DNA from: Synechococcus sp. UW140 | Lineage (GTDB): Bacteria; Pseudomonadota; Gammaproteobacteria; Burkholderiales; Burkholderiaceae_C | Reading direction: 5' to 3' | NCBI GenBank assembly: GCA_943371335.1 | Contig: CALRUK020000021.1 | Span: 4,909 to 68,908 of the forward strand | Length of the DNA: 64,000 bases | In this document: positions 6,381-61,379 of the stretch, in pieces | How the letters are laid out: the number at the start of each line of letters is the position of its first letter | Numbering within the stretch: the stretch's first letter is position 1 | Translations under genes and position numbers: made by a program | The notes under the pieces: model-generated | Databases searched by the model: none | Seen by the model: only the letters and a program-made list of their open reading frames with translations | What the model was told of the DNA's origin: nothing

Positions 6381-7832
6381 TCAGTGCACGTCGTCGCTGG
6401 TGCCTTCGATGATGCCGAAGCGGCGCAGTTTGATGTAGAGGCTCTGGCGCGAGAGACCGAGCATCTCGGCCGCCGACGCGCGGTTGTCGCCCGTGAGCTC
6501 CAGCGCTGCCTCGATGCACAGCTGCTCGATGAGGTCGGTGGTTTCGCGCACGATGTCCTTGAGCGGCAGGCGGCCCACCAACTCGGTCATCTGGCTCGCC
6601 GAGCGGGGCAGTTCCTTGCTGGCGCGCGGGTCGTTGTTCAGCCGTCGGCCCATGTCGCGGATGGTGAAGCCCAGGCAAGGGTGGGCGCCACCCACCACCG
6701 ACACAGCCGACACCTCCACCTCCGAGTGCGAGCCGAATTCGCCACGCAGCTGCGTGGCAAACAGCCGAACCGTGCCGTGCTGGCGCAGGTTGGACAGCAG
6801 AACCCGGAAGTCCACGCCCGTGCGTCCCAGCCAGCGGTCGAGCATCTCGCCGCGGGCCTGCTCTTCGGTGCTGAGCTGGCCCATGTCCAGGAAGGCACGG
6901 TTCACGCTGAGGATGCGCCCCTCGGTGTCTGTGACCACCAACGCGTCGGGTGCCGATTCCATCACCTGCATCAGCTGCTGGCGCGCGGCGGGCATGCTCA
7001 GCTCGGCCGCGCCTTGCCGGGTCACGCGCACCAGGAAATACAAGCGGTTGTCCTGGCGGAACTGCGTGGCCGTGATGAACATCGGTTCGTTGCTGCCCAT
7101 CAGGCGCACCGGGCAGGGGTCGGCACGGCCGGTGGCGCGCAAGCGTTCCACCATGGTTTGCACGTCGGCCTGGTTGTCGGGGTGCAGGCTGTCGGTGAGC
7201 GACCAGCCTGGCTGGCGTGCAGCCTCACCCAGCAGTTCGTAGGCGGCGGGGTTGGCTTCTTCCAGCTTGTCGATGTCGCCCTCGAAGATCAGCACCGGCT
7301 CGGAGGCGAGCTGGAACAGCAGGCGGTAGCGGGTTTCGATCTGGCGCAGGCGCCAGTAGTCGCGCTCCATGGTCTGCTGAGCGGTGACCAGGCGCTGCTG
7401 CAGCACCTCTTGCGGGCGCAGATCGCGACCAAACGCGACGCTGCGAACCCCTCCGCCATCGCTGCGGATGGGGGCCACCGAGTAGGCGATCGGCAGATCT
7501 CCGCCGTCGTTGAGCCGCTGGTTCACCTGGCGCCAGCGCACGCCGTCCGAGGTCACTGCGCCCTGGGTCTTGAGCAAGGCCTCGATCTTGGGCTGGCTGT
7601 CGGCAGAAACGGTCTGCACCCACGATTTGCCCAGCCAGTGCTGGCAGCCGCTCTCAAGCATGTCTTCACTGCCCAGGGCCATGTCGCGGATGATGCCCTC
7701 GTGGTCGAGGATCAGCACCACATCCGCAGCTGCGGTGATCAGGTCAGCGACGGCATCCCCGCTCATGTCGGCCAGGAGCGGGACGGGGTTCAGAAACTGC
7801 CCCTTCACCATCGCTTGAATGCCCTGGGTCAT
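6381..7832 (-). CDS. ppsR: PpsR/CrtJ photosynthesis gene repressor
   Basis: PAS domains, Q-linker (QQRLVTAQQTMERDYWRLRQIETRYRLLF), C-terminal Fis-type HTH CIEAALELTGDNRASAAEMLGLSRQSLY with the redox Cys. Confidence 0.96.
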   Translation of the reverse strand: MTQGIQAMVKGQFLNPVPLLADMSGDAVADLITAAADVVLILDHEGIIRDMALGSEDMLESGCQHWLGKSWVQTVSADSQPKIEALLKTQGAVTSDGVRWRQVNQRLNDGGDLPIAYSVAPIRSDGGGVRSVAFGRDLRPQEVLQQRLVTAQQTMERDYWRLRQIETRYRLLFQLASEPVLIFEGDIDKLEEANPAAYELLGEAARQPGWSLTDSLHPDNQADVQTMVERLRATGRADPCPVRLMGSNEPMFITATQFRQDNRLYFLVRVTRQGAAELSMPAARQQLMQVMESAPDALVVTDTEGRILSVNRAFLDMGQLSTEEQARGEMLDRWLGRTGVDFRVLLSNLRQHGTVRLFATQLRGEFGSHSEVEVSAVSVVGGAHPCLGFTIRDMGRRLNNDPRASKELPRSASQMTELVGRLPLKDIVRETTDLIEQLCIEAALELTGDNRASAAEMLGLSRQSLYIKLRRFGIIEGTSDDVH

Positions 7833-7882
7833 CTGTACCTTCCGGTGATTGAAAGCAATAGCGTCTCGTTATTGCCAGTGGC

Positions 7883-8824
7883 CTAGGGGCGCAAGCGGCT
7901 GGTGGCGACCAGTTTTTCGGCTTGCGTTGGAGCGTGCGCGCCGTTGGTGATGATGGCGTCGGCCTGGATTTGTTCCCCGAACTCGGGGTGCAACTGAAAA
8001 ATGGGCCCGCCGGCGATTATAGGGAGGCGGGGGTTCTGGCTGACCTGGCGGACCAGCTCCATGGCCGCACGCAGCCTGGGCACGCCGGCCTCGCTGCCCA
8101 GCGAAAACCCCACCACGTCGTACCAGTCGTTCTGCACCATCGTGGCCGCCGAATCGGTGGCGAGGAAGCAGGTGACCACGTCCCAGCCGGCCCGGTGAAA
8201 CAGCTCTGCCACGATGGACAGGCCAAAGGTGTGCTGCTCGCCGGGGCAGGGCATGAGCAGGATGCGCTGGCGCTTCTCGTTCTGGGCGCTCAAGCCGAAC
8301 TGGCTGGCCGTCGAGCTGTTTTCCCGCAGCACTTTCTGAAGGCGGCCCAGACCGACCGTGACCTCGGAAAAGCTGCACAGGTCGCGCTCCCACATCTCGC
8401 CCAAATGCCGGGCGACCGGGGACAGCAGTTCGAGAAAGATGGCCTCGGTCGGCACGCCGCGGTCGCGCAGCGTGATCACGCAGTCGCGCACCGCCCGGTC
8501 GTCTTCGTGAAGCACCAGCTCCGCGAACACGGCCACGTCTTCGGGCGTGACCCGCGGGTTGGTGGCGATGGGCGAAGAGGCGCATTCCTCGGGAACGCGG
8601 TGGGCCAGCATGAGCCGCGGAATGATCTCGTACTCGACCGCCTTGGACAGCAGCACGGCGCGCAGGCCGTCCTCACTGACCGGCATGTCGATCGAGGATC
8701 GCAGCAGTTCCTCAATGCCCGGCGGAACACCCACGGGGGTATTTTCCTCGGTCCAATCGTCGGCAAAACGGCCGGCAGGGGCATCGGTCTCGTGGGGAGA
8801 CCTTTGCCTTGAATATGAGCCCAT
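7883..8824 (-). CDS. ppaA: PpaA/AerR cobalamin-binding antirepressor (313 aa)
   Basis: EIIPRLMLAH, ARHLGEMWERDLCSFSEVTVGLGRLQ, PGEQHTFG (B12-binding E-x-H-x-x-G), AGWDV, VGFSL; directly upstream of ppsR; start chosen after AAGGAG. Confidence 0.9.
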   Translation of the reverse strand: MGSYSRQRSPHETDAPAGRFADDWTEENTPVGVPPGIEELLRSSIDMPVSEDGLRAVLLSKAVEYEIIPRLMLAHRVPEECASSPIATNPRVTPEDVAVFAELVLHEDDRAVRDCVITLRDRGVPTEAIFLELLSPVARHLGEMWERDLCSFSEVTVGLGRLQKVLRENSSTASQFGLSAQNEKRQRILLMPCPGEQHTFGLSIVAELFHRAGWDVVTCFLATDSAATMVQNDWYDVVGFSLGSEAGVPRLRAAMELVRQVSQNPRLPIIAGGPIFQLHPEFGEQIQADAIITNGAHAPTQAEKLVATSRLRP

Positions 8825-9032
8825 CCATGTCTCCTTGCGCTGGTGCGCTACTGCCGGTTCACGCAGGGGCCACGGTACTTTTGCCGGTGCTTTCTTACGC
8901 CACGCAAATGAGTTGCGTCGGGGCATTTCCGAGTCGGAAGGCATCTTTTTCAAGTCCGGGCGCTTCCGACTGTCTGCGTTTGTACTGCTGGCCGCTGCGA
9001 TCGTCAAAACATTTTTGATGAAACCTGCAGGC

Positions 9033-9111
9033 ACTTTAGCCAGCGCCGTTTTTGTGTCAAGAAAAATATACGTCAATTTAAATTGACACTTCCACCCGGA
9101 AGTTCTAAATT
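9033..9111. promoter_or_regulatory. Divergent ppaA / bchF promoters overlapped by PpsR-type operators
   Basis: Plus strand TTGACA(9083)-17 bp-TAAATT(9106); minus strand TTGACA(9060-9055)-16 bp-TAAAGT; perfect palindrome GTCAATTTAAATTGAC at 9072-9087; TGT-N12-ACG at 9055-9072. Confidence 0.75.
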
Positions 9112-9141
9112 GGGCTCCGCAGCCACCAGGAGACATGACCG

Positions 9142-17353
<8,212 letters not shown>

Positions 17354-51560: not shown

Positions 51561-52541
51561 ATGACAACCCCCTTCAAGTTCGCAGCGGCCGTGGCACTCG
51601 CGGCCTGCACGGCCACATCGGCCTGGGCGCAAGGCGCGTCCGACTGGCGCCCGAGCAAACCGGTGCGCATCATCGTGCCCATCGTCGGCAGCACCAACGA
51701 CGTGCTCGCCCGACTCATCGGCCCCGAGCTGCAGAAGGCCCTGGGCCAGCCCTTCGTTGTCGAGAACAAGCCGGGGGCCGGGGGCAACATCGGCGCGCTG
51801 GAAGTGGCACGTGCCGCACCCGACGGACACACCCTTCTCATTGGCTACAACGGGCCGCTGGCGATCAACGTCACGCTGTTCGACAAGATGCCCTACGACC
51901 CGATGAAAGAGCTCGCGCCGATCACGCTGGCCGTGAAGTCGCCGCAGTACCTGGTGGTCAACCCGGCGGCCGGCTTCACCGACGTGAAGGACTTCATCGC
52001 CAAGGCCAAGGCTCAGCCCACCAAGTACAGCTACGGCTCTGTGGCCATGGGCAGTGCCTCGCACCTCACCATGGAAATGATGAAGTCGGCGGCCGGCTTC
52101 CACGCCACCCACATTCCTTACCGGGGCGCGGGCCCGGCCGTCACCGACCTCATCGCGGGCAGTGTGCAGGCGGGCTTTTTCGTGCCCGGCAATGTGCAGG
52201 GCTTTGTGAAGGAGGGCCGTCTCAAGCTGCTGGCTTCCACCGGCCCCAAGCGCTTCCCCAGCACACCCGACGTGCCCACGCTGGCCGAGTCGGGTCTGAA
52301 GGACTTCGAGGCCACCTCCTGGATCGGACTGCTCGCGCCGGCCGGCACGCCGCCGGCCATCATCAACCGCTACCACGACGAGATGGTTCGCATCCTCAAC
52401 TCACCCGACATCCAGAAGCGCCTGCACGACATGGAGTTTGAAATCGTGGCCAGCTCACCGAAACAGTTCAGTGACTGGATCGGCACCGAGATCGTGCGCT
52501 GGGGCAAGGTCATCAAGGACACCGGTGCAAAAGCGGAGTGA
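51561..52541 (+). CDS. Bug/TctC tripartite tricarboxylate transporter solute-binding protein
   Basis: Signal peptide, PVRIIVP, VVENKPGAGGNIG, HIPYRGAGPA.TDL, PDVPTLAE. Confidence 0.92.
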   Translation: MTTPFKFAAAVALAACTATSAWAQGASDWRPSKPVRIIVPIVGSTNDVLARLIGPELQKALGQPFVVENKPGAGGNIGALEVARAAPDGHTLLIGYNGPLAINVTLFDKMPYDPMKELAPITLAVKSPQYLVVNPAAGFTDVKDFIAKAKAQPTKYSYGSVAMGSASHLTMEMMKSAAGFHATHIPYRGAGPAVTDLIAGSVQAGFFVPGNVQGFVKEGRLKLLASTGPKRFPSTPDVPTLAESGLKDFEATSWIGLLAPAGTPPAIINRYHDEMVRILNSPDIQKRLHDMEFEIVASSPKQFSDWIGTEIVRWGKVIKDTGAKAE

Positions 52542-53357: not shown

Positions 53358-53795
53358 TCAGCCGGCTTGCGGTGCAGGCTGTGCCGAGGTGGGCAGGCCG
53401 AAGATGCGGTCGAACAGCAGGTTGAACACGAAGGTGTAGACCAGGAAGAACACGATCAGGCCCAGGTCGAGTACGAAGGCCTGCCAGAGCGAGATCTCCA
53501 GCCACCAGGCAAACAGCGGCACCAGCGTCACCACCAGACCGCCTTCAAAACCGATGGCGTGCGCCGCGCGGCGCAGCAGGCTGCGCCCGCGCGTGGCCTG
53601 GCGCGCTTCCCAGCGTTCGAACAAGGTGTTGTAGACCAGGTTCCACACCACGGCGATGGCCGAGGCGGCCACGGCCGCCACGCTGGCGTGGCCCATGTTC
53701 GCGCCCGACAGCAGCGCCAGGCCGGCGGTCGACATGGTGATGGCGATGATTTCGTACAGGGTGATGTAGACGACTTTGCGTTTGATGCCTTGCAT
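53358..53795 (-). CDS. PACE (AceI-family) efflux transporter
   Basis: Two BTP repeats: YITLYEII...WNLVYNTLFE and HAIGFEGGL...YTFVFNLLFD. Confidence 0.9.
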   Translation of the reverse strand: MQGIKRKVVYITLYEIIAITMSTAGLALLSGANMGHASVAAVAASAIAVVWNLVYNTLFERWEARQATRGRSLLRRAAHAIGFEGGLVVTLVPLFAWWLEISLWQAFVLDLGLIVFFLVYTFVFNLLFDRIFGLPTSAQPAPQAG

Positions 53796-53899: not shown

Positions 53900-53912
53900 T
53901 AAGTTGCGGCCC

Positions 53913-54809
53913 ATGGCCTTTTCCAGCGACAACGTGCGGGTGTTTTTGGCGGTGCTCGACAGCGGCTCGTTTTCGGCCGCCGCGCGCCAGTTGGGCCGCG
54001 TGCCCTCGGCCGTGAGCATGACCATCGCCAACCTGGAGGCCGAGCTCGACCTGACGCTGTTTGACCGCAGCACGCGCGAGCCGCGCCCGACCGACGTGGC
54101 GCGCGCGCTGGAGCCGCAGGCGCGCCAGCTCGCCAGCCAGTTGCGCCAGCTGCAGGCGCACGCCGAAGGCCTGCACCAGGGGCTGGAGCGCCAGCTCACC
54201 ATTGCGATTGCGCCCGAGCTGCTGTCAGCACCCTGGAGCCAACCGCTGGCCGTGCTTGCGTCCGAATACCCGGCGCTCATCGTCGAGGTGCTGTCCGCGC
54301 CGCAGTCCGACGCGCTGCGCATGCTGCACGCGGGCGACGCGCACCTGGCCCTGGTGTTCGAGCGCCCGGGCACCGACGAGCGCGAAGGCTTTCAGGAGCT
54401 GGGGCAGGAAATTCTGGTGGCGGTGATCTCGCCCACGCACCCCGAGGCGCAGGCGCGCCAGGGCGAGCTGCAGCTCAACGACCTGATCGACATCCGCCAG
54501 ATCGCGGTGGTGAGCCGCGACCCGCGTGGGCGCGATCCGCGCCTGCTGGTCTCGCGCCACATCTGGCGCACCGACAGCCACCTGGCCACGCTGAGCCTGG
54601 TGCAGGCCGGGCTGGGTTGGGCTTACCTGCCGCGCAGCCTCATCAAGCCGATGGTGGCCGCCGGCACACTCACCGAAATCCGCTTCGGCAACATCAGCAA
54701 CCAGCTGCGTGTGTGGGTGGACGTGGTGTGGCACACCGACCGCCCGATGGGGTTGGGTGCCAAGCGCTTCATCGAGCTCATGCGCCAGGCCGCCAGCGCA
54801 GCGGGCTGA
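53913..54809 (+). CDS. LysR-family regulator (AceR-like position)
   Basis: VFLAVLDSGSFSAAARQLGRVPSAVSMTIANLE HTH; divergent from the PACE gene. Confidence 0.92.
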   Translation: MAFSSDNVRVFLAVLDSGSFSAAARQLGRVPSAVSMTIANLEAELDLTLFDRSTREPRPTDVARALEPQARQLASQLRQLQAHAEGLHQGLERQLTIAIAPELLSAPWSQPLAVLASEYPALIVEVLSAPQSDALRMLHAGDAHLALVFERPGTDEREGFQELGQEILVAVISPTHPEAQARQGELQLNDLIDIRQIAVVSRDPRGRDPRLLVSRHIWRTDSHLATLSLVQAGLGWAYLPRSLIKPMVAAGTLTEIRFGNISNQLRVWVDVVWHTDRPMGLGAKRFIELMRQAASAAG

Positions 54810-54832: not shown

Positions 54833-55036
54833 TCAAACCAGCGCGTTCACCTGCGTGCCCAGCGAGCCATCGGCGGCCAGGGGCAGGTCTGCCGGCAGGG
54901 CGTTGAGCATGGCCATGGCGCCAGCGGACTGGATGTCCTGCACCTTCTTCAGCACCTGGATCTGCACGTCGCTGAAGGTCTGATCGCGCTTCATCTCGGC
55001 GACGGCTTGAACGAGGGCGATGGGGGAGACGTCCAT
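54833..55036 (-). CDS. Small protein, YjfB / putative motility protein-like (67 aa)
   Basis: MDVSPIALVQAVAEMKRDQTFSDVQIQVLKKVQDIQSAGAMAMLNALP...GSLGTQVNALV, the 3' end of the 54833-56005 track ORF. Confidence 0.6.
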   Translation of the reverse strand: MDVSPIALVQAVAEMKRDQTFSDVQIQVLKKVQDIQSAGAMAMLNALPADLPLAADGSLGTQVNALV

Positions 55037-55213
55037 GGGGTTGCTCTTCAAAACAGGTTGTCTGGTGTATCGGCCGCTGGCGGATGAACTTGACGCGTCG
55101 CCACCCACGGGCTGCTGAGCAAGACGAGCGGGCATTTGGCGCGACAGCGAACAGACCGAATCCGGCGCGCCCGATGTAATGGCCAGCGTGCCCGGTGGCA
55201 CAAGGAGCGAACC

Positions 55214-55894
55214 TTGCTGGCCATCATCATTCCGGCGAACAACGAAGAGGCGGTCATTGGCCTGTGCGTGCAGTCGGCGCAGGCTGCGGCGTGTTGCCCG
55301 GCGCTGAACGGCGAGCCCGTGCTCACCATCGTGGTGCTCGATGCCTGCACCGATGGCACCGCCGCCATTGCCCGCCAGTGCGGCGCGCTGACCCTGGCGG
55401 TGGACGCGCACAACGTGGGCATGGCGCGCGCCGCCGGCGCCCGCATGGCACTGGCCATGGGCGCGCGTTGGCTCGCCTTCACCGACGCCGACACCACCGT
55501 GGCCCCCGAATGGCTGCACGAGCAGGTGTCGCTCGACAGCGACGCGGTGTGCGGCACGGTGAGCGTGACCGATTGGGGCGTGCACGGCGAACCCATGCGC
55601 CGGCACTTCAATGCCACTTACACCGACGCAGACGGCCACCAGCACATTCACGGCGCGAACCTGGGCGTCAGTGCGCAGGCGTATCACAGGGCCGGAGGGT
55701 TCGCGCCGCTGGCGTCCAGCGAGGACGTGGCTTTCGTTCGTGCCCTGCAGGCTGTGGGTGCGCGCATCGCGTGGTCGGCGGCGCCGCGCGTGGTCACCAG
55801 CGCCCGCCATGTGTTCCGGGCGCCCGGCGGGTTTGGTGCCACCTTGCTCGGGTTGAACCCGGGCTTGTCCACCGGCCAGGAGTTCGGCGCATGA
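55214..55894 (+). CDS. Glycosyltransferase family 2 (226 aa)
   Basis: TTG start after AAGGAG; IIIPANNEE, VVLDACTD, FTDAD (DxD), HGANLG, SEDV, TSAR. Confidence 0.85.
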   Translation: MLAIIIPANNEEAVIGLCVQSAQAAACCPALNGEPVLTIVVLDACTDGTAAIARQCGALTLAVDAHNVGMARAAGARMALAMGARWLAFTDADTTVAPEWLHEQVSLDSDAVCGTVSVTDWGVHGEPMRRHFNATYTDADGHQHIHGANLGVSAQAYHRAGGFAPLASSEDVAFVRALQAVGARIAWSAAPRVVTSARHVFRAPGGFGATLLGLNPGLSTGQEFGA

Positions 55895-56919
55895 CGGCGT
55901 TTGAACCCGCCAAGCTCGCCCGGGTGCTGGCCGAGCTGGACGCCAGAGAAGGGCCTGCCCAGGCCTTGGCACAACTGGTGCGCCAGGGCCTGGACCAGCT
56001 GCCACTGCCGGCCCACGGCGCCACCTGGCAACGGTGGCAGGCCCTGAGCGTGGTGGCCGAACACGACCTGTCGCTGGTCAAGCTGTACGAGGGCCACGTC
56101 GACGCACTCGCCGTGCAGGCGGAGGTGGCGCCCTGGGCCGACCGCGTGGGCGGCGCCACCTGGGGCATGTGGGCTGCAGAGGCGCCGGGCGAGCGCACCC
56201 GGCTCGAATCCATGGACGCCGACGAAGTGCGCCTGCACGGCCGCAAGGCCTGGTGCTCGGGCGCCGCCCACGTGAGCCATGGTCTGCTCACCGCGTGGTC
56301 ATCGGACGGGCGCGGCCCGCAGCTGGTGCGTGTGGCCATGCAACAGCCGGGGGTGACGGTGTCCAGCGCCGGGTGGCATGCCGTGGGCATGGCCGGCAGC
56401 GAGAGCCTGGACGTGCACTTCGACAACGCCGTGGCCCACCTGGTGGGTGACGAAGGGGCCTACCTGCAGCGCCCGGGTTTCTGGCAGGGCGGGGCCGGCA
56501 TCGCCGCCTGCTGGTATGGCGGTGCCCTGCAACTGGCCCATGCCCTGAGGCGCCACGTGGCAGACACTGCGCCGGCCCAGCGCCAGCCTTTCCGGTGTGC
56601 GGCGCTGGGCCAGGTGGACATGAGCTTGCAGTCCACCGCCGCCTTGCTGCGCGAGGCCGCGCAATGGATCGACGACCACCCCACGCAGGACGCCAGCGCG
56701 GTGGCCCTGCGCGTGCGGCTGGCTGCCGAGTGCAGCGCCACGCTGGTGCTGGACGAAGCCGGGCGCGCGCTGGGCGCCACACCGTTTTGCCGCGACAAGC
56801 GTTTTGCCCGGATGGCGGCAGACCTGCCGGTGTTCTTGCGGCAGAGCCACGCCCAGCGCGATTTCGCTGCGCTGGGCGAGCGCGTGGCGGCTGCCGGTGA
56901 GACGCCATGGGCGCTGTAG
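55891..56919 (+). CDS. Acyl-CoA dehydrogenase-fold flavoprotein (342 aa)
   Basis: LSLVKLYEGH, MWAAE, LHGRKAWCSGA, WHAVGMAGSES, ALGATPFC, DLPVFLRQSH; ATGA overlap with the GT2 gene. Confidence 0.8.
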   Translation: MTAFEPAKLARVLAELDAREGPAQALAQLVRQGLDQLPLPAHGATWQRWQALSVVAEHDLSLVKLYEGHVDALAVQAEVAPWADRVGGATWGMWAAEAPGERTRLESMDADEVRLHGRKAWCSGAAHVSHGLLTAWSSDGRGPQLVRVAMQQPGVTVSSAGWHAVGMAGSESLDVHFDNAVAHLVGDEGAYLQRPGFWQGGAGIAACWYGGALQLAHALRRHVADTAPAQRQPFRCAALGQVDMSLQSTAALLREAAQWIDDHPTQDASAVALRVRLAAECSATLVLDEAGRALGATPFCRDKRFARMAADLPVFLRQSHAQRDFAALGERVAAAGETPWAL

Positions 56920-57668
56920 CGGCGCGCCCGCGCATTCAAGGCGAGGGCACCAGTGGGCGGGTGTGGCAAGCCTGGCTGCCGGCACTGGCATGCGCCGACA
57001 TGGCACACGTGGCCGGCCTGCTGCCTGCGCAGCGGCTCGTGGTGGTGGCACCCCATCCGGACGACGAAGTGTTGGCCTGCGGCGCCCTCATTGCGATGCA
57101 CGCCCGGCAAGGCGGCGAGGTGCTGGTGGTGGCGGTAACGGACGGAGAGGCCAGCCACGCAGAGGTGTCCGCACTGCGCCCGGGTGAGCTTGCGGTGCGC
57201 CGGCGCGCCGAGCGCCTGCAGGGGCTCGCGCACCTGGGCGTTGGCACGCCGCAGGTGCACGCGCTGGCCCTGCCCGATGGCCGTGTGCAGGCGCACGCAG
57301 GCGCGCTGCTGCGCGGCCTGCTGGACGCACTGTGCCCGGGCGATGTCGTGGTGAGCACCTGCGCCTTCGATGGTCACCCCGATCACGACGCCACCGGCGA
57401 CGCCACGCGCCAGGCGTGTCTGCAACGCGGCTGCCGCTGGCTGGCCGCACCGGTCTGGATGTGGCACTGGGCCGCCACCGGCGATGCGCGGGTGCCCTGG
57501 CACCGCTTGCAGCGCCTGACGCTGAGCGACGACGCACGCCTGCGCAAACAGGCGGCACTGGCGGCCCACGTCAGCCAGCTCACGCCACGAAGCCCCGTGG
57601 TGGGCCCGGTGCTGGGCGCCCATGCACTGGAGCGCGCCGCGTGGCGCCATGAGTACTACTTCGTCTGA
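56907..57668 (+). CDS. PIG-L/LmbE-family deacetylase
   Basis: VVAPHPDDEVLACG, TDGEAS, RRAE, LPDG, DGHPDH Zn-binding motifs. Confidence 0.9.
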   Translation: MGAVAARPRIQGEGTSGRVWQAWLPALACADMAHVAGLLPAQRLVVVAPHPDDEVLACGALIAMHARQGGEVLVVAVTDGEASHAEVSALRPGELAVRRRAERLQGLAHLGVGTPQVHALALPDGRVQAHAGALLRGLLDALCPGDVVVSTCAFDGHPDHDATGDATRQACLQRGCRWLAAPVWMWHWAATGDARVPWHRLQRLTLSDDARLRKQAALAAHVSQLTPRSPVVGPVLGAHALERAAWRHEYYFV

Positions 57669-57672
57669 CCGC

Positions 57673-58278
57673 ATGAACGACATCACCCCGCCCGGCTTTG
57701 ACGCGCTCTTTCGCCACAACGAAGACCCCTGGGGGTTTCGCACCCGCTGGTACGAGGCGCGCAAACGCGCCATGACGCTCGCCTGCCTGCCCCAGGCGCG
57801 CTACGCCAGCGGCTTTGAGCCCGGCTGCGCCAACGGCGAGCTCACCGCGCAGCTGGCCGGGCGGTGTGAACGGCTGCTCGCGTCTGATGTGTCACCGCGC
57901 GCGGTCGAACTGGCGCGCACGCGGCTGGCGTCGTTGCCGCATGTCGAGGTGGTGCAGGCCCTGCTGCCCGACCAATGGCCACGCGGCCGGTTTGACCTGG
58001 TCGTCATCAGCGAGCTGGGCTACTTCGTGGATGGGCCCTCGCTCGATGCCATGGCCGCGCACACCCTGGCGTGCCTGCTGCCTGCGGCCACCGTGCTGGC
58101 CTGCCACTGGCGCCGGCCCATTCAGGGTTGCGCGATGGATGGCGATGCGGTGCACGCGCGCTTGGCGCAGGGCCTGCAGTTGCCCCAGCTGTGCGAGGTG
58201 CGCGAGGCGGACTTCGTGCTGAACGTGTGGAGCAGCGACCCGAAGTCCGTCGCGCAGCGCGAGGGCTTTGACTGGTAG
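57673..58278 (+). CDS. NodS-like SAM-dependent methyltransferase (201 aa)
   Basis: FDALF...DPWGFRTRWYEARK, FEPGCANG, SDVS, FDLVVISELGYF, CHWR. Confidence 0.82.
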   Translation: MNDITPPGFDALFRHNEDPWGFRTRWYEARKRAMTLACLPQARYASGFEPGCANGELTAQLAGRCERLLASDVSPRAVELARTRLASLPHVEVVQALLPDQWPRGRFDLVVISELGYFVDGPSLDAMAAHTLACLLPAATVLACHWRRPIQGCAMDGDAVHARLAQGLQLPQLCEVREADFVLNVWSSDPKSVAQREGFDW

Positions 58279-58288
58279 CCGCGCAGGC

Positions 58289-58840
58289 TCAGGGCTTGCC
58301 GCCCGGGGGCACCTGGGTGAGCAGGTCGGCGAGTTCGTCGGCGTGCTCTTCTTCCACCGCAAGGATCGATTCCAACAGCCGGCGCGTGGTCGGGTCGTCT
58401 GCGCCGACCGCTTCAATGGCGTGGCGGTAGCTGTCGATGGCGATGCGCTCGGCCACCAGGTTCTCGCGGATCATGTCGCCCAGCGTCACGCCTTCGACGT
58501 ACTCCGCGTGGCTGCGTTGGGAGAGCGAATCGGGCGAAAAGTCGGGCTCACCGCCCAGCTGCACGATGCGCTCGGCGAGCTGGTCGGCGTGGCCCTGCTC
58601 TTCGTTCGAGTGCACCAGAAACTCGGCGGCCGTGGCGTGCGAGTGGATACCGCTGGCCATGAAGTGGTGGCGGCGGTAGCGCAGCACGCACACCAGTTCG
58701 GTGGCAAGTGCGCCGTTGAGCAGGTCAATGACCTGCTGGCGGTCGGCGCTGTAGCCGGCCGTGACGGCGCCTTCCTCCATGTGCTGGCGCGCGGTCTTGC
58801 GCAGTTCGTTGATGTCGAGGGGTGTGTGTTCTGCGGTCAT
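58289..58840 (-). CDS. Ferritin-like (bacterioferritin/DpsL-type) diiron protein
   Basis: LATELVCVLRY, EEQGHAD..AERIVQLGG, LVAERIAIDSY, EEEHAD. Confidence 0.88.
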   Translation of the reverse strand: MTAEHTPLDINELRKTARQHMEEGAVTAGYSADRQQVIDLLNGALATELVCVLRYRRHHFMASGIHSHATAAEFLVHSNEEQGHADQLAERIVQLGGEPDFSPDSLSQRSHAEYVEGVTLGDMIRENLVAERIAIDSYRHAIEAVGADDPTTRRLLESILAVEEEHADELADLLTQVPPGGKP

Positions 58841-58953: not shown

Positions 58954-60339
58954 TCAGCGGGCCGGTGTTCCGGTGACGGGCTGGTAGTCGTCTTCGGCGC
59001 CTGGTGGAATGGGGGGGTGTTCCTTGAGCGACTGCTGGAAGGCGTGAATCATCTTGCGTATGGGGCCACGCACCCATCCCTGCACGGCATTCACATCGCT
59101 CTCTTCCTTGGGGTCCTGCACGAGGTTGAAGAGGTAGGGCGTTTCAAGATGGTTGGCGCCTGCGTTGGGTTCGACCTCCCACACGAAATGCATTTTCCAG
59201 TCGCGCCATTTGGCGGCACGCAGCTCGCTCTTGATGTAGTACACAAAGCCTTCGCGTGCGGACTTCTGCTGTTCGCCGCGCCAGAAGCTTCCTTGATCCA
59301 CGCCGTCAATGGGCCGGTCCGCCGGCAGCTCTGCGCCCGCGATGGCGGCCAGCGTCGGGAACAGATCCACCACATGCACGATCTCGTTTGTGGTTCGCCC
59401 TGCGGGGATCCGGTTGGGCCAACGCACGATGAGTGGCACGCGCAAGCCGCCTTCCATGGAGGTGTGATACGTGCCTGTCCAGGTGCCAGCGCTGCCGCGC
59501 CACGGACGCCGGTACTCCGGCCCGTTGTCGCTGGCAAAGATGAACACGGTGTCATCCTCCAGGCCGCATTCGCTCACCGCGTCCATGATCTGGCCCACGC
59601 GCGCGTCCATCTCCATCAGCGAGTCGGCGAAGTCGCCGTGTTTTGAGCGCCCTTCGTAGTCCCGGTGGGGAATCGTGGGGTAGTGAAGTTGTGTGAGTGG
59701 CACGTACAGGAAGAACGGCTGTGCCTTCGTGGCTTGTTGCTTCACGTACGCGCAGCTGCGGCGGGTGAGTTCGGCGTCGATGTTGCGCCGCATCTCCAGG
59801 TCGTAAGGCTCCCTGAGTTCGACGGGTTGACCGCGCCGGCCTTCCATGACATGTGGCACGTCCACCACCCCTGGGTCAAAGCCGACTTGTTCGGTGAACA
59901 TGCTCTCGTTCGTGGTGCGCGGGATGCCGTACCACTCATCGAATCCCCGGTCTTTCGGATACCGCCCCTCCTTGTCCCCGAGGTGCCACTTGCCGTACAT
60001 CGCGGTGGCATAGCCGCGCGAAGACAGCAGCTCTGCGATCGTGACCTCCCACGGGTGGATGCCTTGCGGCAGACCTGCGGGCACGGACTGCAGCGCACCC
60101 GTGCGGATGGGGTGACGCCCTGTCATGAGTGCAGACCGCGTCGGTACGCAATCGCTCTCCACATTGAAGTTCAGGAACTGCGTTCCTTGCTTGGCGAGGG
60201 CATCGATGCGGGGTGTGGGCGCGCCGCGCAGGGCGCCGCCGCCATAGCAGCCCAGCTCTCCCCAACCCAGGTTGTCGGCGAGCACCAGAACGATGTTGGG
60301 CGGGCGGTGCGGAGCGGTGCTTTCAAGGGTCTCTGGCAT
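58954..60339 (-). CDS. Cys-type sulfatase (arylsulfatase family, 461 aa)
   Basis: PNIVLVLADNLGWG, CVPTRSALMTGR (CxPxR), GKWHLG, SDNG, EGGLRVP; start approximate. Confidence 0.93.
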   Translation of the reverse strand: MPETLESTAPHRPPNIVLVLADNLGWGELGCYGGGALRGAPTPRIDALAKQGTQFLNFNVESDCVPTRSALMTGRHPIRTGALQSVPAGLPQGIHPWEVTIAELLSSRGYATAMYGKWHLGDKEGRYPKDRGFDEWYGIPRTTNESMFTEQVGFDPGVVDVPHVMEGRRGQPVELREPYDLEMRRNIDAELTRRSCAYVKQQATKAQPFFLYVPLTQLHYPTIPHRDYEGRSKHGDFADSLMEMDARVGQIMDAVSECGLEDDTVFIFASDNGPEYRRPWRGSAGTWTGTYHTSMEGGLRVPLIVRWPNRIPAGRTTNEIVHVVDLFPTLAAIAGAELPADRPIDGVDQGSFWRGEQQKSAREGFVYYIKSELRAAKWRDWKMHFVWEVEPNAGANHLETPYLFNLVQDPKEESDVNAVQGWVRGPIRKMIHAFQQSLKEHPPIPPGAEDDYQPVTGTPAR

Positions 60340-60386
60340 GTGACTTTGCATGGTGTTGTGTAATGAGATCTGTGACGGGGTCGCGC

Positions 60387-61379
60387 TCAATCCGTGAGCT
60401 TGATGCCCAGTGTGGGCACGAGTTGTTCCCAATGGCTCACGGTGTCCTTGAGGAACTTGTCGAAAGCTGGACCGCTCATGTTTTGCGGGGTAATACCGCC
60501 TTCGACCAGCTTTTTCTGGATGTCGGGCATCTGGACGATGCGCGCAATCTCATCGGCCAGTCGCCGTGCGATGGGCTCAGGCAAACCGGTCGGCGCTACG
60601 AGGCCAGCCCACTGTGTCAGCGCGATCTGCGGAAAACCAGCTTCTGTGAACGTGGGCACCTCGGGCAGCGCGGCGTTGCGCTTTGGGGATGTCACCGCAA
60701 GCACGCGCACTTTGCCGTTCTTGTGCTGGGCCAGCATCGGCGCGAGACCCAGTACCGCCATCGGTACCTGATTGCTCACCAGATCGGTGGATGCCTGGCC
60801 GCCGCCCTTGTAGGGAATGTGAATGAGCTGCACGTTTGCTACCTTGGCCCACCACTCGCCCACCACATGCTGAGAGGAGCCAGGGCCCGACGTGCCATAG
60901 GCCAGCTCAGCGGGTTTGGCGCGTGCCGCCTTGACCACGTCCGCCAGGGTTTTGAACGGTGAGGCAACGGGTACCGCGAGGCTGATCGGCTGATCGCCCA
61001 CCATCGCAATCCCCACAAGGTCGCGCTTGAACTTCCAGGTGGCCGTGGGGCGCAGCGCGTCCAGCAATGCGGCCGAGTCGGACGCCAGCGCCAACGTGTA
61101 GCCATCAGGCTTGGCCTGAGCCGCTTGCTGCATCCCGATGGCGCCTGCGGCGCCAGGACGGTTTTCGATCACCACACTCTGCTTGAGCGACTTGGCCAGC
61201 TCGTTGCCCACCAGACGGGCCACGATGTCGTTGGTGCCTCCCGCAGCCTGCGGAACGATGATGCGGATCGCCTGGTCATCGGGCCAGGCCGCATGCACCA
61301 GCGAGGTTGTGATTGCAGGAGCAATCAGCAGCGTGGCAAGGCGTGCAAGCCGGCGATGGAGAGGGTTGATAAACAGCAT
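60387..61379 (-). CDS. Bug/TctC solute-binding protein
   Basis: Signal peptide, IRIIVPQAAGGTNDIVAR, IENRPGAAGAIG, HIPYKGGG, PEVPTFTE. Confidence 0.92.
   Translation of the reverse strand: MLFINPLHRRLARLATLLIAPAITTSLVHAAWPDDQAIRIIVPQAAGGTNDIVARLVGNELAKSLKQSVVIENRPGAAGAIGMQQAAQAKPDGYTLALASDSAALLDALRPTATWKFKRDLVGIAMVGDQPISLAVPVASPFKTLADVVKAARAKPAELAYGTSGPGSSQHVVGEWWAKVANVQLIHIPYKGGGQASTDLVSNQVPMAVLGLAPMLAQHKNGKVRVLAVTSPKRNAALPEVPTFTEAGFPQIALTQWAGLVAPTGLPEPIARRLADEIARIVQMPDIQKKLVEGGITPQNMSGPAFDKFLKDTVSHWEQLVPTLGIKLTD

Follow-up and report, generated by a model that had tools for sequence, protein, structure and literature searches.

The window analysed here is a stretch of 64,000 nucleotides from an assembly filed as Synechococcus sp. 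UW140 (GCA_943371335.1, contig CALRUK020000021.1, positions 4,909 to 68,908; Burkholderiaceae_C according to its GTDB lineage), and at positions 55214–58278 it harbors a cassette of four genes encoding a family 2 glycosyltransferase (GT2), a protein of the acyl-CoA dehydrogenase (ACAD) fold, a PIG-L-type deacetylase and a NodS-like methyltransferase. As read from the sequence, the four genes are one co-translated operon, real and tightly packed, and we estimate a probability of about 0.5 that they encode a general-stress pathway (stationary-phase, desiccation, oxidative), which would lead in four cytoplasmic steps to a de-N-acetylated, N-methylated and probably oxygenated hexosamine glycoside. 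The elements of the operon are the following.

55139–55213, plus strand: upstream leader of about 75 bp, the presumed promoter region; in a blastn comparison of locus L007 (genome G023) with the window, homology of the cassette block starts at 55139
55202–55207, plus strand: AAGGAG ribosome-binding site, 6 nt before the TTG initiation codon of GT2 (direct sequence reading)
55214–55894, plus strand: GT2 gene, 226 amino acids, TTG start with the AAGGAG ribosome-binding site upstream
55891–56919, plus strand: ACAD-like gene, 342 amino acids; its ATG start overlaps the GT2 stop as ATGA (55891–55894)
56907–57668, plus strand: PIG-L gene, 253 amino acids, overlapping the ACAD-like gene by 13 nt (56907–56919)
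57673–58278, plus strand: NodS-like methyltransferase gene, 201 amino acids, after a 4-nt gap behind the PIG-L gene (57669–57672)

The four families are adjacent and co-directional in the window, as in the conserved cassette described below, with junctions of −4, −13 and +4 nt. All reading frames are intact, of full length in comparison to their homologues and with all catalytic motifs kept, and membrane-like hydrophobic segments are absent from all four proteins. A consensus scan, which is uninformative at 70% G+C, depicted neither a sigma-70 promoter nor a convincing terminator in the region. The first-pass annotation of the window had proposed this operon from the letters alone, and its gene coordinates, the ATGA overlap, the 13-nt overlap and the 4-nt gap were all reproduced. 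The DxD, HPDD, HPDH and EPGC-x-x-G motifs it named are found where it had placed them (as DAD, HPDD, HPDH and EPGCANG), and its four family assignments are borne out by Pfam and NCBIfam for GT2, PIG-L and NodS and by AlphaFold and Foldseek for the ACAD fold.

Related loci were collected by scanning one genome per species with a motif derived from the ACAD-like protein, and the cassette genes were placed in them by tblastn. At least 582 species contain a relative of the ACAD-like protein, and the scan yielded 80 loci from Comamonadaceae, Variovorax, Oxalobacteraceae, Burkholderia relatives, Pseudomonas and Salinicola, a sample skewed towards close relatives of the query. The core of ACAD-like, PIG-L and methyltransferase genes, in this order, is adjacent and co-directional in 74 of these 80 loci of other species, and the complete set of four is present in 63. 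The gene order of the window, with the GT2 gene first, is found in 18 loci, mostly Comamonadaceae (GT2 inverted in two of them), whereas in 45 loci from Pseudomonas, Variovorax and Oxalobacteraceae the GT2 gene follows the methyltransferase gene (inverted in three). Orthologues share 47–76% identity, 98%-identical proteins are present in metagenomes, and 308 clusters at E ≤ 1e-30 emerged when 1.84 billion representative proteins were searched exhaustively. The junctions in the related loci are mostly 4-nt overlaps, with the 13-nt overlap of ACAD-like and PIG-L genes recurring in about 43 loci. The length of this overlap between ACAD stop and PIG-L start is constant across genera, and the other junctions are of the common 4-nt ATGA type. 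Its conservation suggests a translational-coupling element that has itself been conserved.

The same activities are also found fused in nature. An ACAD::PIG-L::NodS protein of 851 amino acids is encoded on an actinobacterial contig (Candidatus Nesterenkonia according to one source) with a GT2 gene (224 amino acids) 2 nt upstream, which matches the order in the window; in addition, a GT2::ACAD fusion of 534 amino acids and PIG-L::NodS fusions occur. From the synteny, the recurring junctions and the fusions it follows that the four activities are parts of a single process, and the arrangement is far beyond chance. A gene-neighborhood comparison had been suggested by the first-pass annotation as a way of checking the operon, and the synteny of the four families (core in 74, all four in 63 of the 80 loci) together with the fusions answers it in the affirmative. 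Its tentative view of the arrangement as widespread in bacteria and lacking an assigned product likewise agrees with the number of species given above and with the literature described below.

A stress-related function is indicated by the genes next to the cassette in other lineages, most of all by those of trehalose synthesis. Directly upstream and on the same strand, malQ-treY-DUF2934-glgX is found in 24–25 Pseudomonas loci. In Psychrobacter the order is otsB-otsA-ACAD-PIG-L-methyltransferase-GT2 with otsA and the ACAD-like gene 14 nt apart, and the same layout with otsB-otsA upstream is seen in an unrelated gammaproteobacterial assembly (L111). The cassette of a bioreactor contig (L112) is positioned between treY and a glgX-like gene, and in the two metagenome-assembled genomes of Comamonadaceae closest to the window (L008, L009) the methyltransferase gene is directly followed by otsA-otsB in convergent orientation. 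In L110 a KatE-type catalase gene and the start of the ACAD-like gene overlap, and catalase genes lie within the flanks of L107, L016, L021, L029 and L072. LigD and/or Ku flank the cassette in 11 other Pseudomonas loci (LigD upstream in 10, Ku downstream in 7), and further neighbors are Transgly_assoc (YmgE/GlsB-type) stress proteins, a SpoIIE/RsbU-like phosphatase and DUF2171. The window genome contains otsAB, glgX, ligD/ku and katE elsewhere, and owing to otsAB trehalose is available there; a trehalose-linked stress role is compatible with this gene content. A role in stress protection had previously been suggested on account of the ferritin-like gene beside the operon; since the cassette repeatedly adjoins genes for trehalose, catalase, Ku/LigD and stress proteins, this role stands on a far broader footing than that gene alone.

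A full-text literature search retrieved, within the papers it covered, no functional study of any cassette member and neither a product nor a phenotype nor an enzyme activity; the cluster appears there only as a neighbor of blsA and as a co-regulated A. baumannii 'operon'. In the latter, ACICU_02432-02435 are annotated as glycosyltransferase, S-adenosylmethionine (SAM) methyltransferase, LmbE and ACAD-related protein and marked as one operon (PMC5660220, Table 2). In colistin-dependent mutants these genes drop 31- to 62-fold in concert with otsA, otsB, a catalase and many highly expressed hypothetical genes (PMC5660220). In A. baumannii and A. nosocomialis the cluster is drawn beside the blue-light sensor gene blsA, with the labels acyl-CoA dehydrogenase, GlcNAc-PI de-N-acetylase/LmbE, methyltransferase and glycosyltransferase, and has DUF2171 and a BOF/YgiW stress protein on its flanks (PMC6240043, PMC9020721). 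The Acinetobacter cluster thus comprises the same four annotated families as the cassette, in the ACAD-PIG-L-methyltransferase-GT2 order of the Pseudomonas and Psychrobacter loci, whereas the window shows the GT2-first order of Comamonadaceae and actinobacteria and has a ferritin-like gene and a YjfB-like open reading frame as neighbors. The link to Acinetobacter is made by annotation and by the homologue from Psychrobacter, also of the Moraxellaceae, which was confirmed by sequence. Published work on the trehalose operons of Pseudomonas ends at glgX and leaves the downstream genes unmentioned. The glgA-glgX operon of P. fluorescens is RpoS-dependent, in a strain that lacks the cassette at that site (PMC6372562).

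The GT2 scores 50.9 bits with Glycos_transf_2 (PF00535, cut-off 23.3) and is thereby a member of the GT2 family. Its AlphaFold model, with a mean predicted local distance difference test (pLDDT) value of 91.8, depicts a minimal soluble GT-A domain, for which the best Foldseek matches are inverting GT2 enzymes, namely AvpGT, WrtF, the N-acetylglucosamine (GlcNAc) transferases TarS and TarP, and K4CP. Invariant in 42 orthologues are D91-A-D93 (the DAD motif at 55484–55492), E170-D171 and an unusual H-x-H-G-A-N segment (residues 144–149). A retaining enzyme of the GpgS kind was considered and ruled out, as the fold matches are GT2 enzymes and not GpgS-type synthases and as the ED pair is invariant.

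The deacetylase belongs to the PIG-L/LmbE family (PF02585, 91.7 bits, cut-off 28.2) and is covered to 100% by homologues of 253 amino acids. Its zinc-ligand and base motifs HPDD (57054–57065, residues 50–53) and HPDH (57375–57386, residues 157–160) are intact. The protein remains below the NCBIfam equivalog cut-offs for BshB1 (44.3 against 182.5 bits), BshB2 (39.0 against 195.25), Mca (27.6 against 277.15) and MshB (26.0 against 224.35). The methyltransferase is a member of the Pfam family NodS (PF05401, 46.7 bits, cut-off 24) with its SAM-binding motif EPGCANG at 57817–57837 (residues 49–55). It is not NodS proper according to NCBIfam (NF041650, 62.8 bits against a cut-off of 300), and neither the window nor some 90 related loci show neighbors of the nodA/B/C type.

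The ACAD-like protein would probably act as the oxygenase component of a two-component flavin monooxygenase and not as a dehydrogenase, and with moderate confidence it may be placed among the oxygenases of the ACAD superfamily as a divergent representative. The first-pass annotation had assigned it no role. Its AlphaFold model (pLDDT 86.3, predicted template modelling score 0.88) exhibits the three-domain ACAD fold. Foldseek comparison of this model (probability 1.0, TM 0.75) gives as top match KijD3 (PDB code 4kcf) with bound flavin mononucleotide and dTDP-amino sugar, next a putative acyl-CoA dehydrogenase (5gj7) and an unnamed flavin monooxygenase, and further down TdsC, DszC, Rv3094c, XiaF, an ORF36-type nitrososynthase and DnmZ. 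When the family profile is compared to PDB sequences, TdsC and DszC come first, followed by MsuC, with DnmZ and two true ACADs being weaker. The family-invariant His69 aligns with the histidine of the G-Y-H motif of DszC/TdsC, and the nearly invariant C122-S123-G124 within the W-C-S-G motif (residues 121–124) aligns with their F-C-S-G; the counterparts in DszC are positions that we take to line the active site and to contact the flavin. Among 48 diverse family members, NCBIfam gives weak matches to SfnB (35), DszC (15), HpaH-C2 (5) and HsaA (5), all far below the cut-offs, against a handful of ACAD models, and these weak matches favor oxygenases over true ACADs. In the same 48 proteins Pfam detects the middle domain 43 times, the C-terminal domain (Acyl-CoA_dh_1) 8 times and Acyl-CoA_dh_N not once. 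The sole ACAD domain detected in the window protein is the middle one (Acyl-CoA_dh_M, 29.8 bits, below the Pfam cut-off of 33.3), and the N-terminal, middle and C-terminal domains of a true ACAD are thus not all detectable.

The best profile and fold matches of the cassette flavoprotein hence fall into the group D monooxygenases (KijD3/DnmZ/ORF36 and DszC/TdsC/SfnB/MsuC). Enzymes of the KijD3 type oxidize the amine of amino sugars, the very group that the deacetylase of the cassette would expose. Differences to the KijD3/DszC-type enzymes are nevertheless substantial: the cassette protein shares 17–20% identity with them and is 40–70 residues shorter, its C-terminal domain lacks detectable sequence similarity and no reductase is encoded nearby. 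Furthermore, the substrate of KijD3-type enzymes is a dTDP-sugar, whereas a glycoside is proposed for the cassette.

Taken together with the family chemistry, a pathway of four steps may be formulated, all of them cytoplasmic. The soluble inverting GT2 would transfer an N-acetylhexosamine, most likely GlcNAc from UDP-GlcNAc, onto a hydroxyl group of a small acceptor, from which the PIG-L zinc deacetylase would strip the N-acetyl group to yield a free amine. The NodS-like enzyme is proposed to methylate this amine with SAM, and the ACAD-fold protein, as a reduced-flavin-dependent monooxygenase, would oxygenate the product, the latter two steps taking place in either order. The site of oxygenation would most plausibly be the nitrogen, as with KijD3, DnmZ and ORF36 on amino sugars, since KijD3, the nearest structural relative, oxidizes amino-sugar amines; the reduced flavin could be supplied by a housekeeping reductase. 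Donor, acceptor, sites of methylation and oxygenation and the physiological role are those that we infer from family chemistry and genomic context. Decoration of the cell surface, which the first-pass annotation had put forward besides a small metabolite, is unlikely in view of the lack of membrane-like segments and of any recurring transporter or flippase gene in the surveyed loci.

Two known systems follow a related logic. In the biosynthesis of mycothiol (MshA/MshB) and bacillithiol (BshA/BshB), glycosyl transfer is followed by de-N-acetylation, and in Nod factors NodS N-methylates the deacetylated glucosamine after the action of the GT2 NodC. As proposed for the cassette, a glycosyltransferase of the mycothiol and bacillithiol routes makes a GlcNAc glycoside of a small acceptor, a zinc deacetylase of the PIG-L family frees the amine, and the role lies in stress or redox protection. 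Contrary to the inverting GT2 of the cassette, that transferase is a retaining GT4 enzyme; these routes also involve a cysteine ligase, none of which is seen in the cassette neighborhoods, and the cassette in turn adds a methyltransferase and an ACAD-fold flavoenzyme. With Nod-factor tailoring the cassette has in common the sequence of GT2, de-N-acetylation and SAM-dependent N-methylation, the latter by an enzyme of Pfam NodS. However, NodC is a processive membrane-bound synthase of chitin oligomers and not a soluble protein of 226 residues, NodB is a CE4 deacetylase instead of a PIG-L enzyme, genes for acyl transfer and export are missing from the cassette, and the window does not come from a rhizobium.

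Trehalose or a trehalose precursor is the most plausible acceptor; alternatively, the product may work alongside trehalose as a protectant. Such a tie is proposed because two non-homologous routes to trehalose, OtsAB and TreYZ, are each joined to the cassette and because the Acinetobacter cluster is co-regulated with otsAB. In its most specific and tentative form, which is possible but on balance unlikely, the GT2 acceptor would be trehalose or trehalose-6-phosphate with GlcNAc as the sugar added, and deacetylation, N-methylation and N-oxygenation would yield an undescribed amino-sugar protectant derived from trehalose. Equally tentatively, this compound, a glycoside with an N-methyl-hydroxylamine or N-oxide group, would assist trehalose under desiccation and oxidative stress as a redox-active agent or radical scavenger. 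The predicted [M+H]+ values are 504.192 for hexosaminyl-trehalose, 518.208 for its N-methyl and 534.203 for its N-methyl-N-hydroxy derivative. If true, it would explain why OtsAB, TreYZ, catalase and Dps/ferritin are each joined to the cassette in different lineages.

Several observations weigh against the stress pathway as formulated here. In the fold comparison the true ACADs trail the oxygenases slightly, and the ACAD-like protein resembles monooxygenases only weakly (20–35 bits). A profile of its C-terminal half finds no relative among PDB sequences, so that the monooxygenase assignment draws on the N-terminal and middle domains and on the fold ranking. No flavin reductase gene consistently accompanies the cassette, and with no biochemical or genetic study of any member found, every substrate is a deduced one. 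Within the window the cassette has no adjoining trehalose genes, and its co-location elsewhere with those for trehalose, catalase and Ku could reflect a shared sigma-factor regulon alone and not shared chemistry. Finally, PIG-L is missing from three loci, and several Pseudomonas loci carry a second PIG-L gene together with one for a phosphatase or nuclease of the endonuclease/exonuclease/phosphatase (EEP) family, from which it follows that the pathway may be longer or variable, for example by a phosphatase step.

The loci devoid of PIG-L, with the order ACAD-methyltransferase-GT2, are L069 and L087 from Paraburkholderia and L060 from Pseudomonas. A gene for a PAS histidine-kinase/response-regulator hybrid precedes the cassettes of L069 and L087, and L069 has in addition a pyridine-nucleotide-disulfide oxidoreductase gene ahead of its cassette. 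The second, longer PIG-L gene and the EEP-family gene are located directly 3′ of the cassette in many loci of the fluorescens group of Pseudomonas (L026 at 7317–9172, L037 at 9449–11280, and L045, L053, L057, L071, L073 and L076 at about 10100–11700), some of which lack the GT2 gene.

Four other explanations of the cassette have been compared to the stress pathway, and all of them are less consistent with the data. The location of the cassette inside or directly after operons of the glgA-treZ-malQ-treY-glgX type, which handle alpha-glucans, would also suit the tailoring of a macromolecule, that is, an N-methyl-hexosamine branch on alpha-glucan or glycogen, on maltooligosyl-trehalose intermediates or on another polymer, and the closest fold matches of the GT2 (TarS, TarP, K4CP and WrtF) do act on polymers. 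In Psychrobacter and L111, however, the cassette is partnered by otsBA, whose route from nucleotide sugar to trehalose involves no glucan, the GT2 is a minimal GT-A domain of 226 residues bare of carbohydrate-binding or membrane modules, and characterized PIG-L enzymes generally act on small glycosides and conjugates. We therefore regard such a tailoring function as improbable. A low-molecular-weight thiol or redox buffer of the mycothiol/bacillithiol type, built on a glucosamine glycoside scaffold and completed by enzymes encoded elsewhere, would make sense of the succession of glycosyltransferase and PIG-L deacetylase, the first half of both known pathways, of BshB1 and BshB2 as the best NCBIfam matches of the deacetylase, and of the catalase and ferritin/Dps neighbors pointing to oxidative stress. 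It is hardly to be expected, though, with a GT2 in place of the GT4 of MshA/BshA, with the BshB and MshB equivalog cut-offs widely missed (44 against 182 and 26 against 224 bits), and with no gene for a BshC/MshC-type cysteine ligase seen in about 90 neighborhoods. Moreover, these proteobacteria use glutathione, and the conserved methyltransferase and flavoprotein are without counterpart in the thiol pathways.

The annotation of relatives by JGI as 'alkylation response protein AidB-like' and the DNA-repair genes flanking some loci (LigD, Ku, Lhr, UvrC-like/ImuB-type) are what one would look for if the cassette served catabolism or detoxification, with an N-acetylated or acylated amino compound being deacetylated, methylated and oxidized and the glycosyltransferase conjugating the product. 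The flavoprotein would in this case be a true dehydrogenase or a protective protein like AidB. This explanation is quite improbable, given that uptake systems and catabolic regulators are not among the recurring neighbors of the cassette, that glycosyltransferases and SAM methyltransferases usually belong to biosynthetic routes, that features of CoA-dependent ACADs are undetected (Acyl-CoA_dh_N in 0, Acyl-CoA_dh_1 in 8 of the 48 members) and that the tightest linkage is to trehalose synthesis and not to repair. Chance neighbors, or a decaying island acquired horizontally and lacking a current function, would account for the deviating G+C content (71.9% against 65.5%), for the restriction to two of 26 genomes in the genus (G000 and G023) and for the failure to find a promoter or terminator consensus. 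Yet intact full-length frames with retained catalytic motifs, gene order, overlaps and fusions conserved across phyla, and the 98%-identical proteins in metagenomes leave this explanation with next to no probability, the synteny already contradicting it.

The cassette is found in Pseudomonadota and Actinomycetota with a patchy distribution. Among 25 genomes of the genus the ACAD-like gene is present in the window genome (G000) and in G023 only, and three others that carry it turn up in 400 evenly sampled genomes of the class (about 1%). The G+C content of the cassette is 71.9% compared with 65.5% for the genome. In G023 the block of ferritin gene and cassette is 78% identical to the window at the DNA level and the flank with LysR and PACE/BTP-family genes 85%, and the two are parted by an insertion of 5.6 kb. 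This pattern, along with the patchy distribution and the raised G+C content, fits an accessory unit that would move horizontally. The insertion is located at about 9970–15575 of L007 (G023:C2), equivalent to 55040–55139 of the window between the YjfB-like open reading frame and the cassette, and carries a gene for an Lrp/AsnC-like regulator and an open reading frame of 907 amino acids. The DNA upstream of the GT2 gene that L007 and the window share is 75 bp only.

The following genes border the cassette in the window.

53358–53795, minus strand: gene for a membrane protein of the PACE/BTP family ('chlorhexidine efflux', AceI-like)
53904–54809, plus strand: gene for a LysR regulator, paired divergently with the PACE/BTP gene
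54833–55036, minus strand: YjfB-like ('putative motility protein') open reading frame, 67 amino acids, 25.5 bits (below the cut-off of 27), divergent from the operon
58289–58840, minus strand: ferritin/Dps-like gene, 183 amino acids, Pfam Ferritin 97.7 bits; convergent, with 10 nt separating its stop codon from that of the methyltransferase gene

The adjacency of the ferritin-like gene, from which the first-pass annotation had argued, recurs in G023 and in L106 but is not general. Within the genus the gene adjoins the cassette in G000 and G023 only and occurs in other contexts, with no cassette, in eight genomes; it is absent from all 80 proteobacterial loci. These two findings also rule out the ferritin gene as a general part of the acquired unit: it is a recurrent stress neighbor and not a core part of the cassette. 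In L106 (5417–7020), a distant actinobacterial, Acidimicrobiales-like contig, a homologue of 58% identity lies directly upstream of the ACAD-like gene, and the PIG-L, NodS and GT2 genes are found 4 kb off on the other strand beside an Nramp metal transporter gene. An identity of 58% is unusually high across phyla.

The LysR and PACE/BTP genes resemble the AceR/AceI pair of Acinetobacter. LysR was ruled out as regulator of the operon by virtue of its divergent PACE/BTP partner and the 5.6-kb insertion that parts it from the cassette in G023, and is probably the regulator of the PACE/BTP efflux gene. The YjfB-like open reading frame is probably a real small gene, because it is 82% conserved in G023. 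Past the ferritin gene, at 58954–61379 on the minus strand, a sulfatase gene (492 amino acids) and a gene for a TctC/Bug-family solute receptor are located, and a second TctC gene is found near 51800–52541. TctC/Bug receptors are typical of Burkholderiales. The G+C content of the sulfatase/TctC region, 62–63%, is low in comparison to the cassette.

The cassette is thus present in at least several hundred species, among them Pseudomonas, Variovorax, Burkholderia relatives, Psychrobacter and actinobacteria and, by published annotation, Acinetobacter, and is tied there to trehalose, the best-known system of desiccation and osmotic protection, as well as to oxidative-stress genes. If its product is a new protectant or redox metabolite, it would be an added component of bacterial stress physiology, and the GT2, the PIG-L enzyme, the NodS-like methyltransferase and the divergent ACAD-fold oxygenase would each represent a new activity. 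Such a pathway would also bear on environmental persistence, for instance the survival of Acinetobacter on dry surfaces and the epiphytic survival of Pseudomonas.

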